From NCBI GenBank assembly GCA_965223415.1, contig OZ245002.1:5408001-5472000 (forward strand): DNA of 64,000 bases. Direction: 5' to 3'. The notes under the pieces are model-generated. The model was given only the letters and a program-made list of their open reading frames with translations, had not been told where the DNA came from and ran no database searches. Below, piece after piece: positions 8,915 through 41,882 of this stretch (its first letter is position 1; each line of letters starts with the position of its first letter). This stretch comes from Myxococcota bacterium. Its GTDB lineage: Bacteria; Myxococcota_A; UBA9160; UBA6930. A program made the position numbers and the translations under genes.

Positions 8915-9010
8915 CCCCCGACCCCCAGGTTCGAAGCCTGAAGGGACCCGTAGGAAATCCAAATAGTTACGGGATTCCGAGCGGGAATACGCGGGAATGA
9001 GCGGGAATAC
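8915..9010 (-). repeat. tRNA-Arg anticodon-arm fragment plus 3x10-bp repeat
   Basis: CCCCCGACCCCCAGGTTCGAAGCCTG (8915-8940); GCGGGAATAC/GCGGGAATGA/GCGGGAATAC (8981-9010). Confidence 0.85.
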
Positions 9011-9110
9011 GGGCACAAAATGGTCACACCGGAAATGCTCCGGCGAGTCAATTCTCATGCGGCGACCCATCTGATTTTCCTATTCGAATGGTCATGATAT
9101 ATTGAAGTTC

Positions 9111-10265
9111 ATGTTCGCACGGTACCTGCATCTGCCTCGGCCAGGGACGGAGTCCTTCTTTCTCTGGGGGCCTCGTCAGACGGGCAAGAGCACGCTGCTC
9201 CGGCAGTCCTACCCGGACGGTCGCTGGATCGACCTGCTCAAGGCCGAGGAGTTTCGACGCTATCTGGCTCGCCCCGAGTTGCTGCGGCAGGAGATCGAGG
9301 CCGAGTGGCCGACAGAGAATCGGCAAGTCGTGATCGACGAGATTCAGAAGGTGCCCGCTCTGCTCGACGAGGTTCACTGGCTCATCGAGAATCGCGGCCT
9401 GCACTTCGCGCTATGCGGTTCCAGCGCCCGCAAGGTCAAACGGGGTGCGGCCAACCTCCTGGGTGGGAGAGCTCTACGGTTCGAGCTTCACGGTCTCACC
9501 GCAGGCGAGCTCGGTCGCGAGTTCGACCTCGACCGGATGCTCAACCACGGCTACCTGCCCCGGATCTACGAGGCGAGTCGCCCGCGCCGGCTGTTGAACG
9601 CGTATGTGGCCGACTACCTCAAGGAGGAGGTCGCGGCCGAAGGCCTGGTGAGAAACCTCCCAATCTTCTCTGAGTTTCTCGATGTCGCCTCCCTCAGCGA
9701 CGGTGAGATCGTGAACTTCTCGAACATCGCGCGTGAGTGCGGAGTCTCGAGTCACACGACGAAGAGTCACTTCCAGATCTTGGAAGACACACTGCTCGGG
9801 CGTTGGCTGCCGGCCTATCGGAAGCGACCGAAGCGGAGGGTGATCCGCGCGCCGAAGTTCTACTTCGTCGATGTCGGCGTCGTGAACCGGCTGGCCAAGC
9901 GGGGGGAGCTGTCTCCCGGCTCCGAGCTCTACGGCAAGGCCTTCGAGAACTGGGTCTTCCACGAGCTGTCGGCCTTCGCGAGCTATCGGGAGTTCGACGG
10001 CGGTCTGTCCTACTGGCGGTTGGCCAGTGGTATCGAGGTCGACTTCATCCTCGGAGACATGGAGATCGCCATCGAGGCGAAGTCCAGTGCCAGGGTCACA
10101 CGCGATCACTTGAAGGGGCTGCGGAGCCTCGTGGAGGACCATCCCGACGTGGGGCGGCGGATCGTGGTTTGCCGGGAGTCACGGGCGCGCAAGACCGAGG
10201 ACGGAATCGAGATCCTTCCCGCATCATCCTTCGTTCGCCGGCTCTGGGCGGGCGACCTCGCATGA
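9111..10265 (+). CDS. AAA+ ATPase with DUF4143-type C-terminal domain
   Basis: GPRQTGKS, VIDEIQK, PKFYFVDVG, AFENWV, EVDFI..IEAK. Confidence 0.88.
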   Translation: MFARYLHLPRPGTESFFLWGPRQTGKSTLLRQSYPDGRWIDLLKAEEFRRYLARPELLRQEIEAEWPTENRQVVIDEIQKVPALLDEVHWLIENRGLHFALCGSSARKVKRGAANLLGGRALRFELHGLTAGELGREFDLDRMLNHGYLPRIYEASRPRRLLNAYVADYLKEEVAAEGLVRNLPIFSEFLDVASLSDGEIVNFSNIARECGVSSHTTKSHFQILEDTLLGRWLPAYRKRPKRRVIRAPKFYFVDVGVVNRLAKRGELSPGSELYGKAFENWVFHELSAFASYREFDGGLSYWRLASGIEVDFILGDMEIAIEAKSSARVTRDHLKGLRSLVEDHPDVGRRIVVCRESRARKTEDGIEILPASSFVRRLWAGDLA

Positions 10266-10368
10266 GTTCGGAATCTCGAGGTCCGCGTATGGGCGTTATG
10301 TCAAACCCCTACGGGGAGCCCCGCAGCGGACTTCTCGCGGAAATTCGCCCTCGCCGAGGGTGACTTCC

Positions 10369-10708
10369 TCAAGGGCTTGATGAAGAACTTCCGGACGAGC
10401 TGGCCGACATTTCGACCAGAACGTCGTAGTGGGCGTAGTTCTCCGACGTGGCGCTAACCAGGTCATGCGTCAGGATGTAGGGATCCCCCTCGATAAAGTG
10501 CTCCGTCCAGTGGCCCTCGCTGACGAGGACGCAGCCGGGTCGGATCGCATCGTCGAGTCGACATTCGATCTTCATCTGGCCCCGGTCGTTGAAGACGCTC
10601 ACGATGTCTCCATCTGCCACGTCTCTCGCCCGCGCGTCCGCGGGATGGACGCGCACGATCGGGTTCGGCTCCCGCGCATTCGGCATATCCAGATTCGCGA
10701 AGGTCGTG
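10369..10708 (-). pseudogene. C-terminal fragment of a molybdopterin oxidoreductase
   Basis: VHPADARARDVADGDIVSVFNDRG..IRPGCV; 5' part replaced by IS481 sequence. Confidence 0.8.
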
Positions 10709-11336
10709 GGACTTCGGGCTGCCGACGGCGATCCGCACCGACAACGGGGTTCCCTTCGCGTCGCCCAACGCACTCTTCGGTCTCTCGAGCTCTCGATCTG
10801 GTGGCTCAAGCTCGGCATCCAGATCCAGCGCATCAAGCCGGGCTGCCCCCAGCAGAACGGACGGCACGAACGCATGCATCTCACGCTCAAGAAAGAAGCC
10901 ACCAAGCCCGCGTCGTTCAACTTCCTGCAGCAGCAGGAGCGCTTCGACCGGTTCACAGGCGTTTACAATCACGAGCGACCGCACCAGGCCCTGGACGGGG
11001 CGTACCCCGGCGACGTCTATACACCTTCGCCGCGCGCCTACGAGCCGCCCGGGGAGCCCGAGTACCCGTTCCACGACCGATCCGTCCGGGTCACCCAGTG
11101 CGGTCGGATCTGCCTCGGACGCCGCAAGATCAATCTCAGCACCGTCTTCGCGGGCCAGACCGTGGGCCTCCGCGAGGTCGACGACCAGGTCTGGCTCGTC
11201 AGCTTCCTGGACTTCGATCTGGGCTTCTTCGACCAGGACGAGGGCCGGATCGAGCCCGCCCCGAACCCCTTCGGGCCCCAGAAAGTGTCAACCATGTCCC
11301 CGGAATGATCTGTAAACCATGTGCCCGGAATGGACC
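10709..11336 (+). mobile_element. IS481-family 3' fragment with right end
   Basis: IRTDNG, PQQNGRHERMHLTLK, YNHERPHQAL; repeated TGTMAACCATGT ends; 1-nt frameshift near 10788. Confidence 0.85.
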
Positions 11337-11346
11337 GCGGAATCTT

Positions 11347-11424
11347 TGGCACGCCGGGAGGGATTCGAACCCCCGACCCCCAGGTTCGAAGCCCGATGCT
11401 CGATGTCGAACCACCGGACAACGC
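11347..11424 (-). repeat. tRNA-Arg(TCG)-like element with intact 3' half and aberrant 5' half
   Basis: Loop CTTCGAA, T arm GGGGG-TTCGAAT-CCCTC, CCA end; 6-nt D loop, 4-nt insertion in the acceptor strand. Confidence 0.8.
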
Positions 11425-11555
11425 AGTTCGAAGAGCCGCGCGCTTCCGGGCGTCGGGGATCCGAGATCTGGCGCTCCGCGCAACAACCAAGGGCAACCAT
11501 AGCGCCGAACCAAGCACCGCCAGAACGCGAATTACTCAGCGAATCCAGCGGGTTA
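11425..11555. repeat. Conserved Arg-Asp spacer
   Basis: Homologous to 41883-42013 and 48571-48701; AACCA(A/T) x3. Confidence 0.85.
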
Positions 11556-11652
11556 TGGCGGGGCGGACGGGACTCGAACCTACAACCTCCGGCTGTAACC
11601 CCGCGGAAACGCGGGGGTTCGAAGAGGTGAAGCTTGTATCCCGTTGTATCCC
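11556..11652 (-). repeat. tRNA-Asp att-like module (97 bp)
   Basis: 25-nt tRNA 3' identity plus TTGTATCCC x2. Confidence 0.92.
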
Positions 11653-11692
11653 GCTGCGGGCAGCCGAGGGCTCCGACGCCCATGGATCGGTT

Positions 11693-11708: not shown

Positions 11709-12061
11709 CCTAGCTCGGTGCCGACGGAGGTCGAGGTCAGAATCTACGCCCTACCGGACGGCAGCGAGCCCTACACGCGGTGGGAGGCGGCACTCAGGGA
11801 CAGACAGGCGCGCGCACGGATCCGGGCGCGGATCGGACGGCTTCGGCTGGGCAACTTCGGCGACGCCAAGCGCGTCGGTGAGGTGTTCGAGCTTCGGGTG
11901 CCCGCCGGGCCCGGCTACCGCATCTACTACGGGCGGGACGGCGACGCCGTGGTGGTCCTGCTCTGCGGCGGAGACAAGTGTCGCAGGACGTGATATTCGA
12001 GGGCTAAGAGGACACGTAGATTTGCGCACCTCCTGTTGAGCCGCTGCGCGGCACGTTCCCC

Positions 12062-13348
12062 GTGAGGGAGGGGGGCGTGGGGCAGCGGCGACTGAGGCAG
12101 GAGGAAGTGATGACGATCGAAGTGCTGCACGAGCGGGGGTGCTCGAACCGGGAGATCGCCCGCCAGCTGGGGATCCGGGAGAGCGCGGTGCGCTACCGGC
12201 TGAAGCGGCTGGCGGAGGGGGCGCGAGACGGCCGGAGCGGGAAGCCCTTCCTGGCCGAGGCGGTCCACGAGGTGATCGCGGAGTGGCTGGAGGCGAGCTC
12301 GGGAGGCCGTGGCGTGAACCTGCAGGAGCTTCACGAGTTCCTGGTGGAGGAGCACGGGTACACGGGGAGCTCCAAGAGCGTGCAGCGGTACGTGCGGGCC
12401 CGGTTCCCGAGACCGAAGGTGCGGAGCCGGCGTCGGGTGGAGACACCGCCCGGGGCGCAGGGTCAGGTGGACTGGGGCGAGTTTCCGGGCGTGCGGATCG
12501 GGGGCCAGGAGGTGGACCTGCATGCCTTCCACCTGGTGCTCTCGCACTCGCGGCGAGAAGCGGTGGTGTGGTCGGAGCGGGCGGACACGCTGGCGTGGCT
12601 GGACGTGCACAACCGGGCCTTCGAGCGGCTGGGCGGGGTGCCGGCGGTGCTGCGGGTCGACAACGTGAAGACAGCGGTGGCGAAGGGGGCGGGGCCATGG
12701 GGGACGGTGAACCCGGCTTACGCGAGCTATGCCGGGGCCCTTCGCTTCCACGTGGACGCCACCCGTCCCCGCCAGCCGCAGGAGAAGGGGAAGGTGGAGC
12801 GTCGGATCCTGGGGCACCGGCGGGGCTTCGATCCGCGTCGGCGGGAGCACGAGAGCCTGGAGTCGCTGCAAGCGTGGACGGACGGCCAGGTGGCGCGCTC
12901 GAGCCACCGGCGGCAGTGCCCGGCGACGGGCACGACGGTCTTCCAGGCGTGGGAGGCGGAGAAGCCCCATCTCGGGGCCCTGCCCGAGCGGCTTCCCGAG
13001 CCCTTCGACCTGGCCGTGATGCGACGTGTCGGGCGCGACGCCACGGTGCGCTTCGAGGGGCGTACCTACAGCGTCCCCTTCCGCTTCGTCGAGCAGAGCG
13101 TCGAGGTGCGCGGCTGCGCCCGGCAGGTGCAGGTCTGGGCCGAGGGCTCGGTGGTGGCCGCGCACCCGCGCCACACGCGAAGCCGCCTGCTGCTGGACCC
13201 GAGCCACTACGAGGGGCCGAGCACGGAGGGGGTGGAGGCGCCCGTACCGCTCGGGCGCATGGGTCGACGCCTCCAGGAGCTGTGGGCGATGGAGCCGGAG
13301 CAGCGGCCGATCGACCTCTATGCCGATCTGGCGGAGGTGGCGCGATGA
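12062..13348 (+). CDS. istA: IS21 transposase
   Basis: PGAQGQVDWG, RVDNVK, KGKVER; start uncertain. Confidence 0.92.
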   Translation: MREGGVGQRRLRQEEVMTIEVLHERGCSNREIARQLGIRESAVRYRLKRLAEGARDGRSGKPFLAEAVHEVIAEWLEASSGGRGVNLQELHEFLVEEHGYTGSSKSVQRYVRARFPRPKVRSRRRVETPPGAQGQVDWGEFPGVRIGGQEVDLHAFHLVLSHSRREAVVWSERADTLAWLDVHNRAFERLGGVPAVLRVDNVKTAVAKGAGPWGTVNPAYASYAGALRFHVDATRPRQPQEKGKVERRILGHRRGFDPRRREHESLESLQAWTDGQVARSSHRRQCPATGTTVFQAWEAEKPHLGALPERLPEPFDLAVMRRVGRDATVRFEGRTYSVPFRFVEQSVEVRGCARQVQVWAEGSVVAAHPRHTRSRLLLDPSHYEGPSTEGVEAPVPLGRMGRRLQELWAMEPEQRPIDLYADLAEVAR

Positions 13349-14145
13349 CGGCGGGAAACCCGGTGCCCAAGAAGGGCGGCAAGGTGGATCTCGACCCGAC
13401 CCGCGAGCGGCTCGTGCGCCTCGGCCTCCATCACGCGGCCGAGCACATCGGCGAGGAGCTGGCCCGAGCGACCAAGGACGACCTCGTGCCCCACCGCTTC
13501 CTCGACCTGCTGCTCGAGGCCGAGCTGCAGCACCGCGAGGAGCGGAGGATGAAGACCTCGCTCCGTCTCTCGGGCCTTCCCACGGGGCAGACCCTCGGCA
13601 ACTTCGACTTCGCCTTCCAGCCGAGTGTGGAGCGGAGCCGGATCGAGACGCTGGGCACCTGCGCGTGGATCCGGGCCAAGGAGAGTCTGCTGATCCAGGG
13701 TCCGCCGGGAGTGGGCAAGACCCACCTGGCGGTGGCCCTGGGGGTGCGGGCCGTGGAGAACGGCTTCTCCGTGGCCTTCCATCGCCTCGAGGACCTGCTG
13801 GCGGCCCTCAAGCGCGACGCCGAGATCAGCCCGCAACGGCTGCGGCGGCGCAAGCACATGAACGTGGCGCTCCTCGTCATCGACGAGGTCGGCTTCGAGC
13901 CCATGACGCGCCAGGAGGCGAGCCTCTTCTTCCGGCTCGTCTCCTACCGCTATGGGAGGGGCTCGATCCTGATCACCACGAACAAGGGCATCGCCGACTG
14001 GCCCGAGGTGCTGGCGGGCGACGAGGTGCTGGCCACCGCCATCCTCGATCGCCTCCTCCACCACAGCCAGGTGCTCAACATCTCGGGGCGGAGCTACCGG
14101 CTCCGCGAGCTCGAGCAGGCCGCGGGGCAAAGCGCCCAGCGTTGA
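13345..14145 (+). CDS. istB: IS21 helper ATPase
   Basis: GPPGVGKT, VIDEVG, LDRLLHH. Confidence 0.93.
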   Translation: MTAGNPVPKKGGKVDLDPTRERLVRLGLHHAAEHIGEELARATKDDLVPHRFLDLLLEAELQHREERRMKTSLRLSGLPTGQTLGNFDFAFQPSVERSRIETLGTCAWIRAKESLLIQGPPGVGKTHLAVALGVRAVENGFSVAFHRLEDLLAALKRDAEISPQRLRRRKHMNVALLVIDEVGFEPMTRQEASLFFRLVSYRYGRGSILITTNKGIADWPEVLAGDEVLATAILDRLLHHSQVLNISGRSYRLRELEQAAGQSAQR

Positions 14146-14349
14146 GGCCCCAGAGGGCGGCCTGACGGCCGTGCTCTCCTTCGGAGAGCGGAAGAGAAGA
14201 AGGAAGAACCGAACATCAACCCAGGGGGGTGCGCAAAACTAGCCGTCCTCTTAGCGCGCAAGAGATGACGTCCCTCGACAACAAGGGATCACAGGCGAGA
14301 GACATCGAGCGCGCCGAAGGGTATTGGCGCGACTACCGGAGTCGAAACG

Positions 14350-14652
14350 ATGGCAAGAGCTAGAGACTACCGAGAGCACCTGGACGAGGTGCTGAAGGAC
14401 CACGCGGAGGCGGTGGCCTACCTGAACGCCGCTCTAGCAGAGGACGACCCGGAAGTGTTCCTCCTCGCGCTCCGCGACGTGGCCCGCACTCGGGAGGGTG
14501 GACTCGCAGGCCTGGCCGAGGCCGCGCAGCTCAACCGCGAGCACCTCTACCGGATGCTCTCCGAGAACGGCAACCCGGAGCTCCGCAGCCTGGAGGCACT
14601 CCTCGACGCGCTGGGCTTCCGCCTGAGCGTCGAGCTGAAGGCAACGGGCTGA
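14350..14652 (+). CDS. Addiction-module antidote (HTH antitoxin)
   Basis: YLNAAL..FLLALRDVAR..LNREHLYRMLSENGNP. Confidence 0.88.
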   Translation: MARARDYREHLDEVLKDHAEAVAYLNAALAEDDPEVFLLALRDVARTREGGLAGLAEAAQLNREHLYRMLSENGNPELRSLEALLDALGFRLSVELKATG

Positions 14653-14702
14653 AGCAAGCCGGGAACGCCGCGACCCTTCAGCCGAAGGCCAACGGCTGGT
14701 CG

Positions 14703-14796
14703 CCGACCCCCAGGTTCGAAGCCTGGTCCACGAAGAAGAAGTGACGCGGGGTTACGTCTCGTTGCAGTGCAGGGGGGTGCAATAGGGTGCAGGGAG
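14703..14796 (-). repeat. tRNA-Arg anticodon-arm fragment plus GTGCA x3 at 10-bp period
   Basis: CCGACCCCCAGGTTCGAAGCCTGGT (14703-14727); GTGCA at 14767, 14777, 14787. Confidence 0.85.
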
Positions 14797-14975
14797 GGGT
14801 CGTTTCGACGGCACCAGATCCGCAGACGGCACTATGCGGCGCCTCTCGAGAGACTCTCTCGGTCCGTGATCACACGTGAAGGCATCAACAACAAGGGGTC
14901 GCATAGCAGAGCAATCCTCGGGTGAGCGACAACCCCGTCGATCGACCGGCGCTCCTGGTGGGCCCGTGGCGGGCT

Positions 14976-26559: not shown

Positions 26560-26602
26560 AGACCCCACCCGGCGAACTCCAACAACGGCTCGATGGGCGC
26601 GG

Positions 26603-26720: not shown

Positions 26721-26817
26721 TGGCGGGGCGGACGGGACTCGAACCTACAACCTCCGGCCCTAAGTGCCCGGAAACACAATGGTTCAGACGACTGAAGCTT
26801 GTATCCCGTTGTATCCC
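26721..26817 (-). repeat. tRNA-Asp att-like module (97 bp)
   Basis: 25-nt tRNA 3' identity plus TTGTATCCC x2. Confidence 0.92.
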
Positions 26818-26882
26818 GCCATCCGCAGGCAAGGGCTCCGACATCCGTGGTGTGGTTGTAGCTTTAAAGCTACGCTAGCTCG

Positions 26883-27510: not shown

Positions 27511-27574
27511 AGCAGCCGGGAACGCCGCAACCCTTCAAGCGAAGGCCGCCGCTGTCCCCCGACCCTTGTATCTA

Positions 27575-27790
27575 CTCCACTCACCCGGATCTGGTTCAAT
27601 AGGGTCAGAACGGGTTTCGGGGGAGGGTCGCCGTCCCGACCCAGAGGCATGGTCCTCGTACCTGAGAGAGGCGCCCTCGCCCGATCTCGCAAGCTCGAAC
27701 GGTATCCCGAGGCAGCGGTCTGCCGCTCGTCCTCGCATGCACAAGGAAGAGCACCGAGGTCGGCACCGAGGCTCCCGACGCTCCCGTTCG
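27575..27790 (+). ncRNA. Predicted IS110 bridge RNA (ends approximate)
   Basis: Four guide segments in canonical order at 27635, 27660, 27699, 27741, each pair around a hairpin. Confidence 0.8.
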
Positions 27791-27805
27791 AGGAGGAAGA
27801 AGGGG

Positions 27806-28981: not shown

Positions 28982-29026
28982 ACCGAGAAAACCGGGCCCA
29001 GCCCCTTGCTGAAGATCACGGTATCT

Positions 29027-29112
29027 CAGGTTCGAAGCCTGGTCCAAGAAGAAGAAGTGACGCGGGGTTACGTCTCGTTGCAGTGCAGGGGGGTGCAATA
29101 GGGTGCAGGAAG
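29027..29112 (-). repeat. Right part of the tRNA-Arg fragment plus GTGCA x3
   Basis: Near copy of 14711-14796; GTGCA at 29083, 29093, 29103. Confidence 0.85.
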
Positions 29113-29179
29113 GTGTCGTTTCGACGGCACCGAGTCGCGGGACGGCACTATACGGCGCCTCTCTAGAGAGTCTCCTCGC

Positions 29180-30442: not shown

Positions 30443-30550
30443 CAGGCTTCTCCTCGCTGGGTCACGGCCAACGGTAGTGCCTTAGAAGAATAATTTACAG
30501 AATTTATTCCCGAATATGATAGTGTCGACCTCATACCAGGAGGCGCAGGT

Positions 30551-31774: not shown

Positions 31775-32985
31775 TGGACCTGACCTACGGAGAGGAATAC
31801 GACGTCTTCCGCGAGGAGGTGCGCGCGTTCCTGGGCCGGCATTGGCCGCCTTCCGGGAGCGGCGAGCGACCGACGGCCGACGAGGTCGCGGCGTTTCGCG
31901 ACCTCGCAACCGAACACGGCTTCCTGCGCCGCTCGATCCCGCGCCGCTACGGCGGGTCCGAGCAGCCGCCCGACGTCATCGAAGGCGCGATTCTGCGTGA
32001 GGAATTCAGGCGGGTTCGCGCCCCGATGGATCCGAGCGGCGTCGGCACGATGATGCTCGTCCCGACGCTGCTCGACCGCGGTGCCGAGTGGCAGAAGGAC
32101 AAGTTCGTGCGGCCGACGATGCGCGGCGAGATGATCTGGTGCCAGGGCTATAGCGAGCCGGGGGCGGGCAGCGACTTGGCGTCGATCTCGACGCGCGGCG
32201 AGTTGGTCGGCGATAAATGGGTGATCAATGGGCAGAAGGTCTGGACCAGCGGCGCTCATGCGTCCGACTGGATGTTCTGCCTGGTCCGCACCGAACCGCA
32301 TGCGCCCAAGCATGCCGGCATCTCCTACCTGCTGATCGAGATGAACCAACCCGGCATCGAGGTGAAGCCGTTGCGCCAGATGACCGGTGCAGCGGACTTC
32401 AACGAGGTCTTCTTCACCGACGTGCGTACGCCCAAGGACCACATCGTCGGCGAGCGTGGCCAGGGCTGGCAGGTCTCCCGGACGACGCTCAAGCACGAAC
32501 GCAACTGGATCGGCGCCGCGACGCAGACCACGAAGCTGTTCGAGGGCCTGGTGCAGCTGGCGAGCACGACGTCCCGGGGCGGCCGGCGCAACATCGAGGA
32601 TCCGGCCGTGCGGCGACGTCTGGTCGAGATCGAAGGCTATGTGCGGGCGCACGAGTACTCGAGCTACCGGCAGCTCACGAAGAACGCCAAGGGCGAGGAC
32701 CCCGGCATCATCCAGCAGATGAACAAGTTGAGTTCGACGAACATCGGTCAACGTGTCGCCGCGCTCGCACTCGACCTGCTGGGCGACGGAGGTTTGCTCG
32801 ATGCGACCGGGATCGAGCGCGACGGGCAACGCCCGACGAACGAGCGATCCTGGATCACGCACTACATGTACACGCTCGCCGGAGCGATCGCGGGCGGGAC
32901 GGCGAACATCCAACGCAACCTGATCGCCGAACGCGGGCTCGGGCTTCCACGCGACGTCCACCTCCAGAAGGACGCCGCACGATGA
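31771..32985 (+). CDS. Acyl-CoA dehydrogenase
   Basis: WCQGYSEPGAGSDL, NGQKVWTS, IAGGTANIQRN. Confidence 0.92.
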   Translation: MMDLTYGEEYDVFREEVRAFLGRHWPPSGSGERPTADEVAAFRDLATEHGFLRRSIPRRYGGSEQPPDVIEGAILREEFRRVRAPMDPSGVGTMMLVPTLLDRGAEWQKDKFVRPTMRGEMIWCQGYSEPGAGSDLASISTRGELVGDKWVINGQKVWTSGAHASDWMFCLVRTEPHAPKHAGISYLLIEMNQPGIEVKPLRQMTGAADFNEVFFTDVRTPKDHIVGERGQGWQVSRTTLKHERNWIGAATQTTKLFEGLVQLASTTSRGGRRNIEDPAVRRRLVEIEGYVRAHEYSSYRQLTKNAKGEDPGIIQQMNKLSSTNIGQRVAALALDLLGDGGLLDATGIERDGQRPTNERSWITHYMYTLAGAIAGGTANIQRNLIAERGLGLPRDVHLQKDAAR

Positions 32986-34058
32986 ACTTTGATGTGTCCG
33001 CGGAGCAGGAACTGCTCCAGGGCGTGATCCGCGAGTTCCTCGAGCGCGAGTGGCCGCCGCGGGCCACGCGCGAGGTCATCGAGTCCGACACGGGCTTCGA
33101 CCCCGGCTTGTGGAAAGGACTCGTCGAACTCGGCGTGACGGGCACCCAAATCGAAGAGGAGTGGGGTGGGGCGGGCCTGGAGCTGCTCGACCTCGCATTG
33201 GTCGCCGAGGCCCTCGGCTACGGCGGCGTGCCGGGCCCGTTCCTCGGTCACGTCCTCGCGGCGATGGCGATCCAGCTAGCCGGCTCGGCCGACCAGCGAC
33301 GAAGCTGGCTGCCGCGCCTCGCGGCAGGCGACGCGATCGGCACCGTCGCGTTCGCCGAGGAGGGCGGCGCATGGCAGCCGAACGAGTGGAAGCTGGGCGC
33401 CGGTGATTCGCTCACGGGCACGAAGCTCCACGTTCCGTTCGCCTCGGTCGCCGATGTCCTCGTCGTGGGGACCGCGGGCGGCGGCTTCGTCCTCGTCGAG
33501 CGCGATGCCGCCGGCATGAGCGTCGAGGCCTCCGAAGGCGTCGATCGGTCGCGGCGCATCGACAACGTGACCTTCGATGCCACCCCCTGCGAAGTTCTCC
33601 CCGATGCCGTGGGTGCGGCACCGCGTGTCCGCGACGCTGCGCTCGTCCTGCTGGCCGCGGATGCCTTCGGTTGTGGCTCACGGCTCGTCGAGATGTCGGT
33701 CGACTACGCGAAGGCCCGCGAGCAGTTCGGTGTCACGATCGGCCACTTCCAGGCGGTGAAGCATCAGCTGGCGACGATGGCCGTGGAGCTCGAGCCGTCG
33801 CGGGCGCTCTTCTGGTACGCCGCCCATGCGTTCGACGACTTGCCCGACGAGCGCGAACGCACGGCAACCCTCGCCAAAGCGCACATCACCGACCGGGTGA
33901 TGCAGATCGCGCGCGACGCGGTCGAGGCGCACGGCGGGATCGGGTTCACCTGGGAATGCGACGTCCAGCTGTGGTTCAAGCGGGCGATGTTCGATCGCGC
34001 GTTCCTGGGTACCCCGGACGTGCACCGTGACCGGGCGGCAGGGCTGGCCGGCTGGTAG
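32982..34058 (+). CDS. Acyl-CoA dehydrogenase (partner subunit)
   Basis: REQFG..IGHFQAVKH, HGGIGFTWE. Confidence 0.9.
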   Translation: MNFDVSAEQELLQGVIREFLEREWPPRATREVIESDTGFDPGLWKGLVELGVTGTQIEEEWGGAGLELLDLALVAEALGYGGVPGPFLGHVLAAMAIQLAGSADQRRSWLPRLAAGDAIGTVAFAEEGGAWQPNEWKLGAGDSLTGTKLHVPFASVADVLVVGTAGGGFVLVERDAAGMSVEASEGVDRSRRIDNVTFDATPCEVLPDAVGAAPRVRDAALVLLAADAFGCGSRLVEMSVDYAKAREQFGVTIGHFQAVKHQLATMAVELEPSRALFWYAAHAFDDLPDERERTATLAKAHITDRVMQIARDAVEAHGGIGFTWECDVQLWFKRAMFDRAFLGTPDVHRDRAAGLAGW

Positions 34059-34122
34059 GCGTCCGACCCGCACTCCGGCTCCTCTTTCGAAAGCGCAGCG
34101 CAAACTGATAGGGTTCCGACCC

Positions 34123-34815
34123 GTGGCCGAGACTTCGAATCCCAAGACCGCCTCGAGAGGCCGCCCCCCGCGCGTCACCGCGGAACGTCTGCAGGACGCG
34201 ATCCTCGCCATCGAGGGAGAAGTACCGACGCTGCCGGGCCTTGCCCGACAACTCGGCATCGGCGTGGCCACGATCTACAGCCACGTTCGTGGCCAGGAGG
34301 AACTCCGGCGGCTTGCGGCGGATGTCGTCCTGGACACCTGGCCGATTCCGCCCGCTCAACCGGGCACCCACTGGGCGGATTGGCTGCTCGAGTACGCGCG
34401 CGACTCCCGCCGCATGATCGAACGTTATCCCGTCGCCCATGGAACCCGGCCGATGGCCGGCGGCCAGCTCCGCCACGCCGAACGCGTCCTCGCCCAGCTG
34501 ATCGCGCTCGGGATGAACGGCAGCGAGGCTGTGTACGCGTTCCACCAGGTCGGGCTCCTGGTACTCGGACTCGGAGCGCAGATCGAAGCAACGCGGGCCG
34601 AGGGTGCGCAGTCCGGTCTCGACGAATGGGGACTGCTCCAGGAAGCGTTCGCGAGCCATCCGGATGAGCTGCCTGTCCTGGGTGGACTCGAGCGGACCGA
34701 TCTCCCCTCTCTGAACGCCGCCTTCGACGAACTGGTCTGGTTCACGCTCGCAGGCATCGCCCGCCGCCGAGGTGAGGTCTTGCCCAACCAGCCTCCGGCT
34801 GCGACGGCGCCGTAG
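34123..34815 (+). CDS. TetR-family regulator
   Basis: GRPPR..LARQLGIGVATIYSHV; start inferred. Confidence 0.75.
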   Translation: MAETSNPKTASRGRPPRVTAERLQDAILAIEGEVPTLPGLARQLGIGVATIYSHVRGQEELRRLAADVVLDTWPIPPAQPGTHWADWLLEYARDSRRMIERYPVAHGTRPMAGGQLRHAERVLAQLIALGMNGSEAVYAFHQVGLLVLGLGAQIEATRAEGAQSGLDEWGLLQEAFASHPDELPVLGGLERTDLPSLNAAFDELVWFTLAGIARRRGEVLPNQPPAATAP

Positions 34816-34849
34816 GCTCGGACCTCCGGAAGATCCACGGCACTCCCCT

Positions 34850-35704
34850 TCAGGGCGTCTCGAGCGACGATCCCTGGATCGAGGAGCAGTGAAGCGCCAT
34901 CTCACTGTACTTGTCAGCGAGAGCCTCCATCCCCGGTGCGATCTCGACATCGTGGGGCGTGTAGCTGGGCATGTAGATGCGGAGCAGCCCCGGAAACACA
35001 TCGCGGACCCTGCCGGATCGGGGAACGAGGGATGCCTCCCTCAACTCCGCCTTCTCCCGTGCGCTGCGCTTCGGCGGCGGACGCACGGACATCATGTACT
35101 TCACCACGCGGCGCACCCATCTGGAGAAGTGGAGTTGGGCCCAGGTGCCGACGGCCAGGCGATAGAGGTAGCCGCCGCAAACGTGATCGTAGACGTCGAA
35201 TGCGACGGTGCGATGCTCCAGCTCTTCGACGAAGTGCCACTCCCACATCTGCAGGAAGGTGGGAAGGTCTTCGCCGAAACCGTTCGGTTCCATCAGGTGC
35301 TTGACCACGTGCATCGTGAAGGCTTCGAAGCCTTCCGCGTACGCGAGGTTGAAGCGCAGCGACTTGGTCTTGGAGAATCGGTGGTAGTCGTCCGAGAGCT
35401 CCTTCTCCAGCGTCTCGAGTCCGGGAAAGCCCGAGCGGCGGATGGTCTCATTGAACTTCATGTGCATCCGGTAGTGCTGGCCCTCCTGGGCGGCGAACCC
35501 CTTCAGGCCCTCGAGAACCTTCGGATCGGTGACATGGCTCTGTGCGGCCTTCATCGACCGAATCAAGTAGGGCTCCAGGTGCGGGAGCAGGAGCGAGGCG
35601 GCGATGAAGGTGAACGACTGTTCGTGATCGCCCTCGATGAAGACCGGGTCGATCTCATCAGGAAACTCGAACGGCATCCGTCGGACGGTGATGGTGTCCA
35701 GCAT
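34850..35704 (-). CDS. Predicted metal-dependent hydrolase
   Basis: QEGQH, EAFT, WHFVEELEHRTVAFDV. Confidence 0.85.
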   Translation of the reverse strand: MLDTITVRRMPFEFPDEIDPVFIEGDHEQSFTFIAASLLLPHLEPYLIRSMKAAQSHVTDPKVLEGLKGFAAQEGQHYRMHMKFNETIRRSGFPGLETLEKELSDDYHRFSKTKSLRFNLAYAEGFEAFTMHVVKHLMEPNGFGEDLPTFLQMWEWHFVEELEHRTVAFDVYDHVCGGYLYRLAVGTWAQLHFSRWVRRVVKYMMSVRPPPKRSAREKAELREASLVPRSGRVRDVFPGLLRIYMPSYTPHDVEIAPGMEALADKYSEMALHCSSIQGSSLETP

Positions 35705-35754
35705 GGTTTCTCCTCGGGGCAAAATGCAACTCGGCCGCACTGGGATGTTCGACA

Positions 35755-36573
35755 TCATCCGTCGTCTTCATTCCAGAACAGACGCGCCGCGTTCTGGTAG
35801 AGAAAACGATCGAGGACCCCGGGGCGAAGGTCGAGCTTTCGCGCCTCTTCGACACATCTGGGCATCTGAATGGCCGGATGGTCGGACGCGAAGATGGTCT
35901 TCTTCTGGCCACGCGTATTCATGAAATGAATCAGCTCGGGCGGGAAGTGCTTGGGAAGGTAGGCCGACGTCATCAGGTGCAACCCGGGATACTTGAGCAT
36001 CAGGCGAAACGCGACCTGCCACCACGGATCGGCGCCGTGGGCCATCACGAGCTTCAATTCTGGAAAGTGGAGGCAGACCCGATCGAGGAACATCGGGTTC
36101 TGGCATTCGCCCGGCACCTGTGGCCCGGGAATTCCGGTGTTGATCGTGATGGGCAGGTCGAGCTCGATGCACTTCGCATACACCGGGTAGTAGATGGCGT
36201 CGTTCGGTGGGATGTCGAACAAGAAGGGGGTGATGCGCGCCAGCACCACCGGGTGGTCCCGTCGGAAGGACTCGAGTGCGCGGAGTGTCTTCATCCCGCG
36301 GCGTGGGTTCAGCTGGGCGCCGAGCGAGAACCGTTCCGGGTGCTTCTCGGGAAACTTCATGACGTGCTCGGACGGCTTCGCGGGATCCGTCGTCAGGATG
36401 GCCCGCGCGACGCCGCAGCCATCCATCATGTCGAGCATCTCCTGGACTTCGTAGTTGCGGAAGAAGTCCTCGCCCTGCTTGAAGTAGTCCTTCCCTACCT
36501 GTTCCAGGTAAGCGGGCCGGCCGAACTCGGCCACGTTCACGTTCACCCAGCAGTCGATTGCGCGCGGCGCCAA
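35755..36573 (-). CDS. Amidohydrolase_2 family
   Basis: YYPVYAKC.EL, MAHG, IFASDHP. Confidence 0.85.
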   Translation of the reverse strand: MAPRAIDCWVNVNVAEFGRPAYLEQVGKDYFKQGEDFFRNYEVQEMLDMMDGCGVARAILTTDPAKPSEHVMKFPEKHPERFSLGAQLNPRRGMKTLRALESFRRDHPVVLARITPFLFDIPPNDAIYYPVYAKCIELDLPITINTGIPGPQVPGECQNPMFLDRVCLHFPELKLVMAHGADPWWQVAFRLMLKYPGLHLMTSAYLPKHFPPELIHFMNTRGQKKTIFASDHPAIQMPRCVEEARKLDLRPGVLDRFLYQNAARLFWNEDDG

Positions 36574-36719
36574 GGTCTCTTCCTCCGGAAGGGTGGGCGG
36601 CCGCGAGGCAGCCTATCATATTTGAGATCTTTTTCTGTAAATCATTCTCTAAATGATCTACAGTAGGTCCCACGGCCGAGCTTCGGCTCACCGCAACCGC
36701 CGATGGGAGCCTGCAGCGC

Positions 36720-37907
36720 ATGAAGTTCGGAATCTTCTACGAGCACCAGCTGCCCCGGCCGTGGACGGACGATGCCGAGCATCGGCTGATGAAGGACTCG
36801 CTCGCCCAGTGCGAGCTCGCGGACAAGCTCGGGTACGACTACGCGTGGGAAGTCGAGCACCACTTTCTCGAGGAGTACTCCCACTCCTCGGCGCCCGAGG
36901 TCTTCCTCGCCGCCGCGAGCCAGCGCACCGAGCGGATCCGGCTGGCGCACGGAATCATCCAGCTGACGACGAACCACCCGGCGCGAGTGGCCGAGCGAGT
37001 CTCCACACTCGACCTCGTCAGCGACGGGCGCGTGGAGCTCGGGATCGGTGAGGGTTCGACGTCGACCGAGCTGCACCCGTTCGATCGGCGATTCCGCGAC
37101 AAGCGGCCGGTCTGGGAGGACGCCGTTCGGGCGCTCATCCCGATGTTCACGGAGCCGGTCGCCGAGTATCACGGAACCCACTTCGACTTCCCGCCGCGCA
37201 ACGTCTTGCCGAAGCCGTTGCAGAAGCCGCATCCGCCCTTGTGGGTGGCGTGTTCCCAGCTCGAGACGATCCAGATGGCGGGGATGCGCGGCATGGGCGC
37301 GTTGGGCTTCCAGTTCGCCTCGGCCGACACCGCGACGAAGTGGGTCCATGCCTACTACGACGCCTACCTGAATCAGCTGGACAAGCTCGCGGACTACCAG
37401 ACGAACCCGAACATCGCCGTCGTCTCCGGCTTCATGTGCGCCGAGACCGACGAAGAGGCCCTGCGAAAGGCCGATGGTTGGACCTTCTTCCAGTTCGCGC
37501 TCCGGTACTACGGGAGCAAGGGCGTGCTTCCCCCCGGAGAAGTCTCGCTCTGGGAGGAGTACGAGAAGTGGCGGGCGACGCCGGAGGGCCAGAAGCAGAG
37601 CCGCACCGGGCTGATCGGCTCGCCCGACACACTGCGGCGTCGTCTCCGCAAGTTCGAGCAGTCGAACGTGGACCAGGTCATCCTGCTCAATCAGGCTGGC
37701 AAGAATACGCACGAGGACATCTGTTCGAGCCTCGAGTTGTTCGCGCGCGAAGTGATGCCGGAGTTCCACGGTCGCGACCCGGAACACCAGGAATGGAAGC
37801 GCGCGGTCCTCAACCGGGAGCTCGTACTCGACCGTCCGGACACGACGCAGCCCGAGGACACCACCGCTCTCTTCAAGCCGACGCAGCCACCGTCCTCGGG
37901 GGCGTGA
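36720..37907 (+). CDS. LLM-class flavin-dependent oxidoreductase
   Basis: EHHFLEEYSHSSAPE, GRVELG.G, PKPLQKPHPPLW. Confidence 0.9.
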   Translation: MKFGIFYEHQLPRPWTDDAEHRLMKDSLAQCELADKLGYDYAWEVEHHFLEEYSHSSAPEVFLAAASQRTERIRLAHGIIQLTTNHPARVAERVSTLDLVSDGRVELGIGEGSTSTELHPFDRRFRDKRPVWEDAVRALIPMFTEPVAEYHGTHFDFPPRNVLPKPLQKPHPPLWVACSQLETIQMAGMRGMGALGFQFASADTATKWVHAYYDAYLNQLDKLADYQTNPNIAVVSGFMCAETDEEALRKADGWTFFQFALRYYGSKGVLPPGEVSLWEEYEKWRATPEGQKQSRTGLIGSPDTLRRRLRKFEQSNVDQVILLNQAGKNTHEDICSSLELFAREVMPEFHGRDPEHQEWKRAVLNRELVLDRPDTTQPEDTTALFKPTQPPSSGA

Positions 37908-37980
37908 GGTTCATCGGGCCGGCGGATGTCGGCCCTTCACGGGCTTCGGCCCTGCACTCGACTCCATCTGGAGGCACACG

Positions 37981-39738
<1,758 letters not shown>

Positions 39739-39879
39739 TGGACGCGAGGGCCGACCCGGGGCTCACGATCTGAAGGCGAGGTCGCCCTCCGCTCGGTGGC
39801 CGACACGGCGGAGCTGGGGCCGGGAACACTGGAGATCTCCCGTGGTTGCGCCACCGTCGGAACGGCGAGGAGGACCCAC

Positions 39880-41646
39880 ATGGCTTGGCTCGACGAACTC
39901 ACTGCGATCGGACGTCTAGTAGGGAGCGCTCGACGTGCGCTGCCCAAATCGAACTGGACCATGACGCGGCTGCTCGAGGAGCGCGCACACCGGGCGCCCG
40001 GCGATCTTGCCCTCGCGTACCTCGATCGTCGGTATACCTGGGGCGAGATCGACCAGCACGCGAATCGCTGGGCCCACGTGTTCCTGGACGAGGGCATCGA
40101 GCCCGGCGACATCGTGGCGCTGATCATGGACAACCGACCGGAGTACCTCTTCGCGGTCCATGGCCTCGCGAAGGTCGGTGCGGCGGCGGCGCTGATCAAC
40201 ACGAATCTCACGGGTCAGTCCCTCGTCCACGCGATCACCGTGGGGAACTCGCGCAAGGTCGTCGCCGGCGACGAGCACGCGGCCGCCGTCGAAGAGGTGA
40301 TCGCGGAGCTCGAGACCCTCGACGACGAGCACCCGGTCCTGCTCCACGTGGAGGACGCGACGCAGCCGCGACCCGGTGGGGGCGTGCCGCTCAACGAGGC
40401 GCTGCAGTCGGCCCAGGCGTCGAAGCCGCAGGTCGCAGTCGAGGCCGACTCCGAGATCCTCTTCTGCTTCATCTACACGTCCGGGACGACGGGGCTGCCG
40501 AAGGCTGCGGTCGTCTCGCACCGGCGCGCGATGATCGGGGGGCTCGGCGCTGCGCACCTCATGATGCGGCTCGAGCCGGGTGACGTGAGCTACGTGGCCC
40601 TGCCGCTCTATCACTCGAGCGCGATGTTCATCGGCTGGAGCGCCGTGCTGAACTCCGGCGCTGCGATGGCGTTGCGGCGCAAGTTCTCGGTCACGCATTT
40701 CTGGGACGACGTGCGTCGCTTCGGCGCCACGCACTCCGTCTACATCGGCGAGCTGTGTCGCTACCTCCTGAACGGGGAGCCCGGTCCGGGCGATCGCGAC
40801 CACGACCTGCGTTGCGTAATGGGCAACGGACTGCGACCGGACATCTGGAACGAGTTCCAGGAGCGCTTCGGGATCCCGGAGATCCGCGAGTTCTATGGCG
40901 CCACCGAAGGCACGGCGGGGCTCATGAATCGCACGGGCAAGCCGGGCATGGTGGGCAAGATCGGCTTCGGCATGAAGCTGGTCACCTGCAACCAGGAGAC
41001 CGGCGAGCCGATTCGCGGCGCCGACGGTTTCTGTACCCCGGTCGACCCGGGGCAGATCGGCCTGCTGCTGGGACCGATCTCGAAGGCGACCTCGTTCGAC
41101 GGCTACGTCGACCGGGAGGCCTCGCAGAAGAAGATCCTGACGGACGTGTTCAAGAGCGGCGATCGCTTCTTCAACACGGGGGACCTGTTGCAACTCCACG
41201 AGGGCAAGTGGCTCTCGTTCGCGGATCGGGTGGGGGACACCTTCCGCTGGAAGGGCGAGAACGTCTCGACCAACGAGGTCGCGGAGGTCTGCAACGGAGC
41301 GCCGGGTGTGCTCGAGACCAACGTCTACGGCGTTCAGGTTCCGGGCGCAGACGGCCGGGCCGGCATGGCGGCGATCGACACGGACGAGGGCTTCGACCTC
41401 GAGGCGTTCGCCGGGTTCGTGAAGTCGGCGCTTCCCGGCTACCAGCGTCCGCTCTTCGTGCGCCTGCTGGGCGGCGAGATGCAGACCACCGGCACCTTCA
41501 AGCACCAGAAGGTGCGATACCGCAACGAGGCGTTCGATCCCGGCCAGTGCGAGGACCCGCTCTACTACTTCGATGGCGAGTCGTATCGGCCCATCGACGC
41601 CGCGGTCTTCGACGCCATCGGCAAAGGCGAGATCCGGGTGGGCTAG
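39880..41646 (+). CDS. Long-chain acyl-CoA synthetase (FATP/FadD6-like)
   Basis: IYTSGTTGLPK, YIGELCRYL, DRVGDTFRWKGENVST. Confidence 0.92.
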   Translation: MAWLDELTAIGRLVGSARRALPKSNWTMTRLLEERAHRAPGDLALAYLDRRYTWGEIDQHANRWAHVFLDEGIEPGDIVALIMDNRPEYLFAVHGLAKVGAAAALINTNLTGQSLVHAITVGNSRKVVAGDEHAAAVEEVIAELETLDDEHPVLLHVEDATQPRPGGGVPLNEALQSAQASKPQVAVEADSEILFCFIYTSGTTGLPKAAVVSHRRAMIGGLGAAHLMMRLEPGDVSYVALPLYHSSAMFIGWSAVLNSGAAMALRRKFSVTHFWDDVRRFGATHSVYIGELCRYLLNGEPGPGDRDHDLRCVMGNGLRPDIWNEFQERFGIPEIREFYGATEGTAGLMNRTGKPGMVGKIGFGMKLVTCNQETGEPIRGADGFCTPVDPGQIGLLLGPISKATSFDGYVDREASQKKILTDVFKSGDRFFNTGDLLQLHEGKWLSFADRVGDTFRWKGENVSTNEVAEVCNGAPGVLETNVYGVQVPGADGRAGMAAIDTDEGFDLEAFAGFVKSALPGYQRPLFVRLLGGEMQTTGTFKHQKVRYRNEAFDPGQCEDPLYYFDGESYRPIDAAVFDAIGKGEIRVG

Positions 41647-41804
41647 GCGCTCCGAGCTTCCTCGGCTGGGTGCTTAACTGCGCAGTGCCGTCACTGCTGG
41701 CTGGCCTGGAACGGCAACGCATCGAGTCGCTTCGCATCTAATGCTGAGCCCCAGGTGCGTTGCCTGAGGCTCGATGCTGCCGTGCGGTAAGTGCGCGAGT
41801 TCGC

Positions 41805-41882
41805 TGGCACGCCGGGAGGGATTCGAACCCCCGACCCCCAGGTTCGAAGCCTGGTGCTCGATGTCGAACCACCGGACAACGC
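41805..41882 (-). repeat. tRNA-Arg(TCG)-like element with intact 3' half and aberrant 5' half
   Basis: CCAGG-CTTCGAA-CCTGG arm, T arm, CCA; near copy of 11347-11424. Confidence 0.8.

Follow-up and report, generated by a model that had tools for sequence, protein, structure and literature searches.

How an island can grow by insertion at tRNA-derived sites while no integrase gene is recognizable within it is the question raised by the locus described here. It lies in a window of 64,000 nucleotides (nt) from a Myxococcota bacterium (GenBank assembly GCA_965223415.1, contig OZ245002.1, positions 5,408,001 to 5,472,000 of the forward strand), and coordinates below refer to this whole stretch unless another locus is named. 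A genuine tRNA-Asp(GTC) gene (48702..48778, minus strand), called by ARAGORN and given 70.8 bits by Rfam across the full model, forms the primary chromosomal attachment site and closes an array of 48.7 kb that extends to its left. We consider it likely that this array arose by tandem accretion, through site-specific recombination at two tRNA-derived sites of which one is nested within the other, with integrases presumed to act in trans. An earlier note on this DNA had proposed such a two-tier arrangement, in which units inserted at tRNA-Asp form a chassis, each carrying a decoy tRNA-Arg site into which a second integrase loads payload; the structure of the array and of its relatives supports this reading.

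Arg cores bracket the cargo of two units

The repeated Arg core, CCGACCCCCAGGTTCGAAGCC, is a 21-mer of which the window holds four exact copies, all on the plus strand (8918, 11373, 14703 and 41831), against a chance expectation of 0.01 from 100 shuffles, none of which reached four; allowing up to four mismatches revealed no further intact copy in the window. A fifth copy, interrupted by an IS110-family insertion sequence (IS) and carrying one mismatch, consists of CCGACCC (27559-27565) and TCAGGTTCGAAGCC (29026-29039). In unit 3 (left core 8918..8938, on the chassis side) and unit 5 (left core 27559..29039), such copies enclose cargo as direct repeats, at 8918-11393 and 27559/29026-41851; both brackets had been described in the earlier note, and with so low an expectation they are not chance repeats. 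The mismatch and the IS110 in the left copy of unit 5 are borne out as well, the latter by Pfam (DEDD_Tnp_IS110 and Transposase_20). Two details needed correction: the start previously given for the first copy, 8915, is that of a 27-nt family, the exact 21-mer starting at 8918, and the copy in unit 4 (14703..14723, plus strand) had been overlooked. The latter is the homologue of the split copy (14281-14709 versus 27139-27565, 96.7% identity; 14711-14858 versus 29027-29174, 92.6%) and has no right-hand partner within unit 4. The two copies of unit 3 lie in unrelated flanks and have only 26-27 nt in common.

The 5-7-5 dyad previously read in this core, CCAGG-TTCGAAG-CCTGG, is perfect at 14703, 29027 and 41831 and imperfect at 8918 (CCTGA) and 11373 (CCCGA). 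Within the attachment block, the cassette-borne copy runs from the CCA through the anticodon arm, and the shared block comprises the variable loop and the stem-loop; the dyad is imperfect in two of the five copies, and the sequence by itself does not place the exact crossover. The IS110-family element of unit 5 (27566-29025) sits exactly inside the core, with CCGACCC on one side and CAGG on the other. Sequence-specific targets are known for this family, and the anticodon-arm sequence may be one; a second copy of the element was not found in the related loci.

The right-hand copies (11347-11393 and 41805-41851) carry the complete tRNA 3' part with its CCA, as had been claimed, and fall within 70-nt tRNA-Arg(tcg) calls by ARAGORN on the minus strand. 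These pseudo-tRNA-Arg(TCG) sequences occupy 11347..11420 in unit 3 (payload-borne 3' part with CCA, 11347-11372; core, 11373-11393; diverged 5' part, termed Y, from 11397) and 41805..41878 in unit 5 (payload-borne 3' part with CCA; core, 41831-41851; Y from 41855). Their 47 nt from the CCA to the anticodon loop are identical to the genuine tRNA-Arg(TCG) of many metagenome-assembled genomes (MAGs), for example in loci L003, L009, L019 and L033 of the survey described below. Identity with the genuine tRNA runs from TGGCACGCC to GAAGCCTGGTGCTC, after which GATGTCGAACCACCGGACAAC stands in place of TATCCAGCTGAGCTACCGGCGCG, the split falling after TGCTC. The Y part is still D-arm-like, with three bases missing, and four of the seven acceptor pairs are left. 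Rfam scores the pseudo-tRNAs at 30.0 bits (unit 3) and 36.9 bits (unit 5), over model positions 4-67 only and with a gathering score of 29, compared with the 70.8 bits of tRNA-Asp. We rejected the possibility that they are working tRNAs on account of these low scores, the diverged 5' part and the loss of acceptor pairs; judged by its sequence, the pseudo-tRNA is a pristine 3' two-thirds joined to a decayed 5' third.

The left-hand copies come after the stop codon of an antitoxin or nucleotidyltransferase (NTase) gene, have before them at most a decayed T-arm and never an acceptor end, and are trailed by direct repeats, which the earlier note had given as 10-bp repeats: CGGGAAT-type behind 8938, and three GGTGCA copies behind each of 14723 and 29039. 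The arms formed in this way are of two types in the window, type A (14724-14858 and 29040-29174) reading TGGTCCA.GAAGAAGAAGTGACGCGGGGTTACG followed by the three GGTGCA repeats, and type B (8939-9035) reading AGGGACCCGTAGG followed by the CGGGAAT-type repeats. In units 3 and 5 the cassette sits inside the pseudo-tRNA, with a perfect tRNA-Arg 3' part on its right and a conserved arm with direct repeats on its left. This anatomy is the one expected if a circle consisting of 3' part, core and arm recombined with a site consisting of decayed T-arm, core and Y. The uneven decay would follow from the same process, because each insertion would renew the 3' part and nothing would renew Y, and renewal of this kind would show how perfect tRNA 3' parts can persist in pseudo-tRNAs.

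The Arg sites belong to units stacked at tRNA-Asp

The array comprises at least six units in tandem at the 3' end of tRNA-Asp. Six copies of this 3' end lie left of the gene on the same strand (at about 1378, 4772, 7914, 11555, 26720 and 42014); GGCGGACGGGACTCGAA is common to all seven Asp sequences, the gene and its six copies, and the 24-nt GGCGGGGCGGACGGGACTCGAACC (plus strand) to six of the seven. The 24-nt core comes from the acceptor and T-loop at the 3' end of the gene, and the copies abruptly cease to match the true gene at a point within the tRNA. Two 10-nt repeats (TTGTATCCCG) stand to the right of five of the copies, and all 10 exact occurrences of TGTATCCCG in the window are on the plus strand and within about 120 nt of an Asp core. 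To the left of the copies lies a conserved spacer of about 110 nt, of which there are two types, and at the Asp cores these two are crossed with at least four right-arm types. The canonical unit accordingly reads Asp 3' fragment, TGTATCCCG arm repeats, toxin-antitoxin pair, pseudo-tRNA-Arg(TCG) and conserved spacer.

The junctions, all on the plus strand, vary around this order. J0 (1378..1473) has a divergent right arm with two copies of GTGCTCAAGG, 85-91% identical to arms in L039, L046, L006, L084 and L048, and J1 (4772..4872) carries TGTATCCC arm repeats. J2 (7803..8012) and J3 (11421..11653) each consist of the spacer, which forms the left arm, the Asp 3' fragment and two TGTATCCCG repeats, and J4 (26587..26818) has the same parts with a type-2 spacer that itself contains two TGTATCCCG repeats and with no Arg site leftward of it. 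J5 (41879..42111; spacer, Asp 3' fragment and arm repeats) is, together with its pseudo-tRNA, 94.9% identical to L006 over 236 nt. At 48486..48701 (plus strand) lie a decayed pseudo-tRNA-Arg, in which GACCCCCAG is fused to ATGCTCGATG with loss of the anticodon loop, and the unit-6 spacer, which adjoins the genuine tRNA-Asp.

The type-1 spacer (41940-42010, 11480-11550 and 48625-48695) contains three to four repeats of about 11 nt, (A/G)ACCAA(G/A)C.C, at roughly helical spacing, and the block is conserved in L006, L039, L046, L058, L069 and L084; these repeats look like arm-type binding sites. Because the flanks of the Asp copies resemble att arms, the internal junctions look like attP, the pattern that tandem accretion at a single attB generates. 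The GC content is 0.64-0.69 in most of the 48 kb left of tRNA-Asp, versus 0.70-0.76 to the right, where glycosyltransferase, sulfotransferase and sugar-nucleotide genes are found. Just left of the first Asp fragment, a 39-nt piece (1101-1139) matches the beginning of the HigB-like genes in units 4 and 5 at 90-92% identity and is the remnant of a further, mostly deleted unit.

Empty, loaded and mixed sites occur in relatives

Searching one genome per species for the 19-mer GACCCCCAGGTTCGAAGCC gave 111 loci (numbered here with the prefix L) at 107 distinct sites, and these were compared with the window by local BLAST of its first 49 kb and by a search for both cores. To the right of the core, the 107 sites show the genuine tRNA 5' part in 62 cases, arm A in 7, arm B in 2, arm C in 4, Y1 in 3, Y2 in 2 and other sequence in 27, and on the left these flank types are combined with 3' parts that are full, partial or absent. 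That flank types are freely combined at both cores argues for exchange at the cores themselves. The contigs of the 62 sites with genuine tRNA-Arg(TCG) are mostly labeled Myxococcota or deltaproteobacteria, with Vicinamibacterales, Thermoleophilia and others also represented. Nine distinct contigs among the 111 loci (L006, L039, L046, L058, L069, L080, L084, L093 and L108) contain both Asp and Arg sites, oriented alike.

The earlier note had suggested looking in relatives for units without payload, and two loci contain them. L069 reads pseudo-tRNA, spacer, Asp fragment, TGTATCCCG-type repeats, HTH gene, NTase gene, a pseudo-Arg site (core with one mismatch and a Y-type flank), spacer and Asp fragment. 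In a three-way alignment (A3), its left flank, the end of the NTase gene, is common to the left junction of the window and to L058, its right flank (TGCTCGA.GTCG onward) is common to the right junctions, and the switch falls at the core. In L046 a payload-free unit of about 1.1 kb lies between two Asp cores. The same locus contains, at 10001-10460, a 436-nt "cassette" between two cores that amounts to hardly more than a type-C arm and an incomplete tRNA-Arg 3' part; it shows no obvious gene and is either a cargo-less att module or a deletion product.

In loaded units, the same chassis is seen with varying payloads. The toxin-antitoxin modules of units 3 and 2 are 77-83% identical to those of L058/L069 and L039, respectively. 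Over about 1150 nt, the unit-3 chassis with its HTH and NTase genes shares 79% identity with L058 and 77% with L069. This chassis is empty in L069; in the window it is loaded with a type-B cassette that includes a DUF4143 gene, and in L058 with a type-A cassette in which a Na/Ca exchanger gene and a bestrophin-like gene lie. The VapBC chassis carries two tandem cassettes in L039; in the window, unit 2 keeps of its Arg site only the T-arm remnant GGGATTCGAACCCCC (5544..5558, plus strand), directly after vapC, the core behind it being lost. A second prediction of the earlier note was that payload ends in relatives coincide with the Arg core, and this they do in L058, L039, L080 and L108.

The same arms also occur outside Asp arrays. 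Arm A comes after a full tRNA-Arg 3' part in L076 and after a partial one in L078, arm B after a full one in L024, and arm C after full ones in L072, L075 and L102. At a genuine tRNA-Arg(TCG) gene on contig CAWDFQ010000014 (L072/L008/L016), an array consists of two displaced copies of 3' part plus core and the intact gene; L075 has three tandem junctions of 3' part, core and arm, and L081 a 3.95-kb cassette (TetR, SGL, CMD and hydrolase genes) bounded by copies of 3' part plus core. In the L072 array (9200-9235 and 9292-9861), a BrnT/HTH pair that is 73% identical to window 1519-2086 lies between a truncated 3' part and a full 3' part with core, indicating that toxin-antitoxin mini-cassettes are also present in the Arg tier. 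Among plasmids and phages we found no array-like relative of the junction at 41790-42130; the matches, in six plasmid and two phage records (one of them annotated as tRNA-Arg), covered 58 nt in the tRNA-Arg portion of the junction.

Integrase genes adjoin genuine tRNA-Arg(TCG)

A crude regular-expression search for integrases over 260 open reading frames (ORFs) near cores gave seven candidates, six of which were submitted to Pfam, and one proved to be an integrase. This frame, L055:9283-10038, matches PF00589 at 4.7e-15 and terminates within a genuine tRNA-Arg(TCG), in its 3' part and core; the integrase gene as a whole (8858-10038) appears split into two frames, its N-terminal piece lying in the other. 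Because the frame runs through the tRNA 3' part and core, attP would lie inside the integrase gene. With the L055 piece as query, tblastn found homologues of the catalytic domain directly beside genuine tRNA-Arg(TCG) in L110 (80%), L097 (62%), L096, L044 and L019, with further matches in L028 and L067. In L019, the intact tRNA and a displaced, decayed copy of it enclose a 6.6-kb element, whose integrase fragment adjoins the tRNA. Compared with phages, the L055 integrase found only distant tyrosine integrases, at no more than 36% identity among the matches listed. Integrase-carrying elements that target tRNA-Arg(TCG) therefore exist in the same kind of genomes, and may be the ones that serve the cassettes.

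Three other candidates were set aside. The regular-expression candidate L076:8073-9962 is a GH127 enzyme by Pfam. The rve protein of an IS481-like element was rejected as the integrase of the cassettes, since the element has terminal inverted repeats of its own and is an ordinary IS of about 1.3 kb, and the DUF4143 ATPase was dropped as a recombinase because nothing supports that role.

A proposed two-tier mechanism and its alternatives

We propose that trans-acting integrases probably drive the nested integration, and infer both these enzymes and their present-day activity. In the first tier, a tyrosine integrase recognizing the T-loop/acceptor end of tRNA-Asp would stack small units there, using as attP-like arms the spacer of about 110 nt with its phased ACCAAGC-type repeats on the left and the two 10-nt repeats on the right. 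Each unit would bring a toxin-antitoxin pair and a pseudo-tRNA-Arg; the "chassis" may simply be a toxin-antitoxin mini-cassette that carries a landing site. In the second tier, the anticodon arm of the pseudo-tRNA (CCAGG-TTCGAAG-CCTGG plus the variable loop) would act as a secondary attB. Integrase-free cassettes would insert there by way of a compact attP in which the tRNA-Arg 3' part, from CCA to anticodon loop, and the core are joined to an arm of about 150 nt, leaving a left junction of decayed chassis T-arm, core and cassette arm and a right junction of perfect cassette 3' part, core and chassis Y. A second integrase, for which the family reading into tRNA-Arg(TCG) in L055 and L019 is a candidate, would recombine the decoy with circular cassettes, and both integrases would be supplied in trans. 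The toxin-antitoxin pairs would hold and stabilize the units, recombination between any two like sites would excise, fuse or reshuffle them, and IS insertions would freeze some of them, as the IS110 in the unit-5 core and the IS21 in the unit-4 toxin gene may have done.

Several observations weigh against this proposal. None of the 62 window ORFs annotated with Pfam (47 + 15) contains a tyrosine integrase domain (PF00589), nor does Phage_integrase appear in any of 111 ORFs (61 + 41 + 9) from loci with arrays or junctions; tblastn with the L055 integrase matched the window only through its tRNA-encoded tail, with no match to the catalytic domain, and an integrase for the Asp tier was seen nowhere in the window or the loci. 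Clean brackets are found in only two of at least six units, unit 4 having no right Arg site, units 2 and 6 being decayed and unit 1 having none. The many ISs (four IS21, IS481-like, IS110 and DDE_Tnp_1), and the fact that the unit-3 payload ends in a truncated IS, indicate that rearrangement has altered at least part of the picture. Empty units could have arisen by deletion between the 21-27-nt repeats, with no integrase involved. The relatives, finally, are MAG contigs, some of them short and some with odd or mutually inconsistent taxon labels, and may be related by descent instead of independent of one another.

The lack of an integrase in the window and in the related arrays would also be explained if the array were a fossil, left by ordinary islands whose integrases decayed, with the Arg-in-Asp nesting an accident inherited from one ancestor, nothing moving and no trans system at work. 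Decay is heavy, in that parts of the Arg sites are missing from units 2, 4 and 6 and IS21 and IS110 split the HigB gene and the unit-5 core; the integrase genes at the genuine sites in L055 and L019 look fragmented; and an origin by decay has been described for cis-mobilizable elements (CIMEs), at least in the available text of one source (PMC5704250). We nevertheless regard a fossil as unlikely. More than 15 cassettes or units in at least nine contigs are free of integrase yet have arms that are 84-95% identical, perfect tRNA-Arg 3' parts and differing cargo; one and the same chassis is empty or differently loaded across genomes; and the right ends of cassettes abut cargo genes with no integrase remnant between them. 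Such a combination of traits agrees better with compact non-autonomous cassettes than with repeated independent loss.

Part order inside the array would be the same if the nesting were reversed and there were a single tier, with all exchange at the Arg core and the toxin-antitoxin pair, Y, spacer and Asp fragment forming one more cassette type on which the Asp fragment hitch-hikes. The BrnT/HTH pair between tRNA-Arg 3' fragments at the genuine tRNA-Arg of L072 is in keeping with that idea. It does not account for an array that ends at an intact tRNA-Asp, with identity between copies and gene stopping sharply within the tRNA, for at least four right arms and two left spacer types joined at one 24-nt Asp core, or for the paired 10-nt repeats beside each Asp core; moreover, ARAGORN finds no genuine tRNA-Arg in the window. 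On this evidence we judge a single tier to be highly improbable. More improbable still is an origin of the repeats by duplication, homologous recombination or IS-mediated rearrangement of one tRNA-Arg-containing segment: although units 4 and 5 are clear paralogues (90-97% over about 860 nt), so that two of the five cores are not independent, and although ISs abound and one IS481-like copy is in two pieces that overlap by 80 nt, the unit-3 copies share 26-27 nt in unrelated flanks, flanks switch exactly at the core in many genomes, the cassette ends have an arm-plus-tRNA-part anatomy, and chance is excluded.

Relation to known mobile elements

The accretion of nested, trans-served units that we favor has its closest precedent in CIMEs, which are att-bounded elements that lack integration genes and accumulate in tandem at the 3' end of a target gene (as summarized in the available text of PMC5704250, citing Pavlovic 2004 and Bellanger 2011). 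Like them, the array is att-bounded and integrase-free and has attP-like internal junctions, and its movement would need the integrase of another element (PMC5704250, same portion). Units 3 and 5 are bounded on either side by att-like cores with arms, as are the Asp units, and the Pfam hits include no integrase, relaxase or conjugation domain. The array differs in that two att systems are interleaved, the second target being a pseudo-tRNA carried by a first-tier unit, and in the very small size of its units, which at about 1.1 kb comprise a toxin-antitoxin pair and sites, with no partner integrative and conjugative element (ICE) or integrative and mobilizable element (IME) and no conjugation genes seen; a functional partner of this kind was found neither in the window nor in the related loci. 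The array is best grouped with the accretion/CIME type, as a form with nested att sites and with compact cassettes presumably served in trans.

In the Islander catalogue, tRNA-gene islands use anticodon-loop (A) and T-loop/junction (J) subsites, and an integrase is demanded for each island, including tandem members (available part of PMC4383910). The array resembles such islands in having an intact tRNA gene at one end and direct, displaced 3' fragments, with an Arg core that appears to be centered on the anticodon loop (probably A) and an Asp core at the T-loop/acceptor end (J), in the terms of that part of PMC4383910. In the Asp tier, the intact tRNA-Asp is accompanied by six same-strand 3' fragments; in the Arg tier, the right end of units 3 and 5 is formed by a pseudo-tRNA and their left end by a core fragment. 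By contrast, the integrase that Islander demands is found in 0 of the 62 window ORFs, and the tRNA gene targeted in the Arg tier is non-functional.

Tycheposons of Prochlorococcus, in the portion of the description available, are likewise cargo elements at tRNA genes, with partial tRNAs between neighbors, successive integration and niche metabolic cargo (bioRxiv 10.1101/2020.12.28.424599). They are described there as having a site-specific integrase (tyrosine or large serine), often a replication module, and cargo, and as residing at a tRNA gene; the word "nested" does not occur in that portion of the text (0 occurrences) (bioRxiv 10.1101/2020.12.28.424599). An island inside a tRNA-sited island, with a toxin-antitoxin system linked to stability, is known from the HipAB-stabilized CGI48 of Shewanella, where, in the available text, the inner island targets the protein gene yicC rather than a decoy tRNA (PMC8978831). 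Among the Pfam hits of the window, there are no integrase, primase, helicase or polymerase domains such as tycheposons would bring.

Integrons are arrays of small integrase-free units with recombination sites of their own, served in trans by one integrase, and toxin-antitoxin cassettes are frequent in large arrays. The sites described here differ in being double-strand, tRNA-derived att sites with arms, and many of the cassettes are multigenic with their own regulators; no integrase was found on either side of the array, nor any IntI, attI or attC, attC not having been sought with a dedicated model. We hold only tentatively, as a possibility, the broader reading that these loci form an integron-like, two-site cassette economy built from tRNA pieces, in which toxin-antitoxin units of about 1 kb stack at tRNA-Asp with portable decoy pads, shared integrase-free cassettes (attP of about 220 nt) with metabolic genes, regulators or DUF4143 ATPases dock at genuine tRNA-Arg(TCG) or at decoys, and a few integrases reside elsewhere. 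If it were true, decoys would multiply docking capacity without risk to an essential tRNA gene while the toxin-antitoxin pairs held the pads in place. Should the two-tier reading itself hold, islands in these high-GC, mostly uncultured bacteria would grow by a two-level modular scheme of self-stabilizing docking units and recombinase-free cargo. Non-autonomous, trans-served cassettes would then extend beyond integrons to tRNA-type att sites, which would account for islands that island-finders discard for want of an integrase. The short att pair (decoy attB of 21-27 nt, attP of about 220 nt) might also serve as an integration tool in myxobacteria, where the Mx8 and Mx9 sites are standard.

The attB of the myxobacterial phage Mx8 is in tRNA-Asp. 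The Mx8 integrase has its attP inside the int coding sequence (available text of PMC6070905), and the L055 integrase ORF, which seems to run through the tRNA-Arg 3' part and core, is similar in this respect (PMC6070905, same portion). No DNA similarity to phage records beyond tRNAs was seen among the matches listed. A comparison of the tRNA-Asp region with phages (E up to 1) returned 1284 records, of which the best 25 are tRNA-type matches, with no Myxococcus phage among these or among the ten most frequent organism names. In the literature we found no description of a decoy tRNA attB on toxin-antitoxin mini-units, or of this array in Myxococcota; subscription journals were mostly outside the search, which is not proof of absence.

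Content of the units

Pfam annotation covered 47 ORFs across 17-48351 and 15 further ORFs of the window, 13 of these right of tRNA-Asp, and placed a toxin-antitoxin pair directly after the right arm in five units. Unit 1 has a BrnT/HTH pair (1517-2092; Pfam). Unit 2 has a VapB-VapC (PIN) pair (4913..5532, plus strand; VapB_antitoxin 2.2e-15, PIN 2.9e-15), which is 82.6% identical to L039 over 809 nt including the Asp fragment. Unit 3 has an HTH (XRE) gene and a DUF6036 nucleotidyltransferase gene (8044..8896, plus strand; HTH_3 2.9e-14, DUF6036 weak at 5.5e-5), a putative toxin-antitoxin pair. In units 4 (11718..14652, plus strand) and 5 (26883..27510, plus strand), the pair is a Gp49/HigB-like toxin and an antidote, of HI1420 type in unit 4; the toxin gene of unit 4 is split by IS21 with a 5-bp target duplication (ACAAG), and the pair of unit 5 is intact and 90.8-96.7% identical to that of unit 4.

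Behind these pairs the cargo comprises a TetR and a short-chain dehydrogenase gene; a DUF4143 ATPase gene; TetR and glutathione S-transferase (GST) genes with IS debris and a fatty-acid hydroxylase gene; the 12.8-kb block of unit 5; and genes for AraC, aldehyde dehydrogenase, enoyl-CoA hydratase, CoA-transferase and fumarylacetoacetase. The unit-3 payload (8939..11346, plus strand), which matches L024 at 93.4% and L080 at 85.8%, consists of the type-B arm (8939-9035), the AAA_14/DUF4143 ATPase gene (9102-10265) and the 3' part of an IS481-like element (10709-~11336). In unit 4, the type-A cassette arm (14724..14858, plus strand; 85-86% identical to L039, L076 and L078) is followed by TetR, GST and several ISs, with no right-hand Arg site. 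The unit-5 payload (29040..41804, plus strand) opens with a type-A arm (29040-29174; 87% identical to L076 and L078) and encodes a P450, amidohydrolases, two acyl-CoA dehydrogenases, TetR, a metal hydrolase, a luciferase-like monooxygenase and an AMP-binding enzyme, with no integrase. The AAA_14/DUF4143 ATPase recurs as the first gene of Arg-site cassettes (window 9102-10265; L080 4965-6140; L075 8694-9806 and 11373-12527); since it comes with arm B in the window and L080 and with arm C in L075, whose gene is 79% identical to that of the window at the nucleotide level, cargo and arm appear to be exchangeable.

Two IS21 copies, each with IstA and IstB (about 11949-14281 and 23081-25412), are 99.6% identical and inverted with respect to each other, the first being the one that splits the unit-4 toxin gene; two more IS21-type elements lie at 2230-4603 and 17964-20457. 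The IS481-like element, about 1.3 kb long with the terminal repeat ATTCCGG..ACATGGTTTACA, is present in the window as two pieces (10709-11336 and 21929-22676). These truncated halves lie 11.9 kb apart in direct orientation, the 3' half first, and their 80-nt overlap (10709-10788 and 22595-22674) is 100% identical; no simple event explains them, and they show that the unit-3 payload and the unit-4 cargo have undergone rearrangement. The right end of the IS481-like element lies about 15 nt from the CCA end of the pseudo-tRNA of unit 3 and of that in L006. It is found likewise at genuine tRNA-Arg(TCG) in L004, by alignment, and at genuine tRNA-Arg(TCT) in L003/L075, and BLAST coordinates suggest the same placement beside genuine tRNA-Arg(TCG) in L035 and L087, which points to a target preference of this element for the 3' flank of tRNA-Arg genes.

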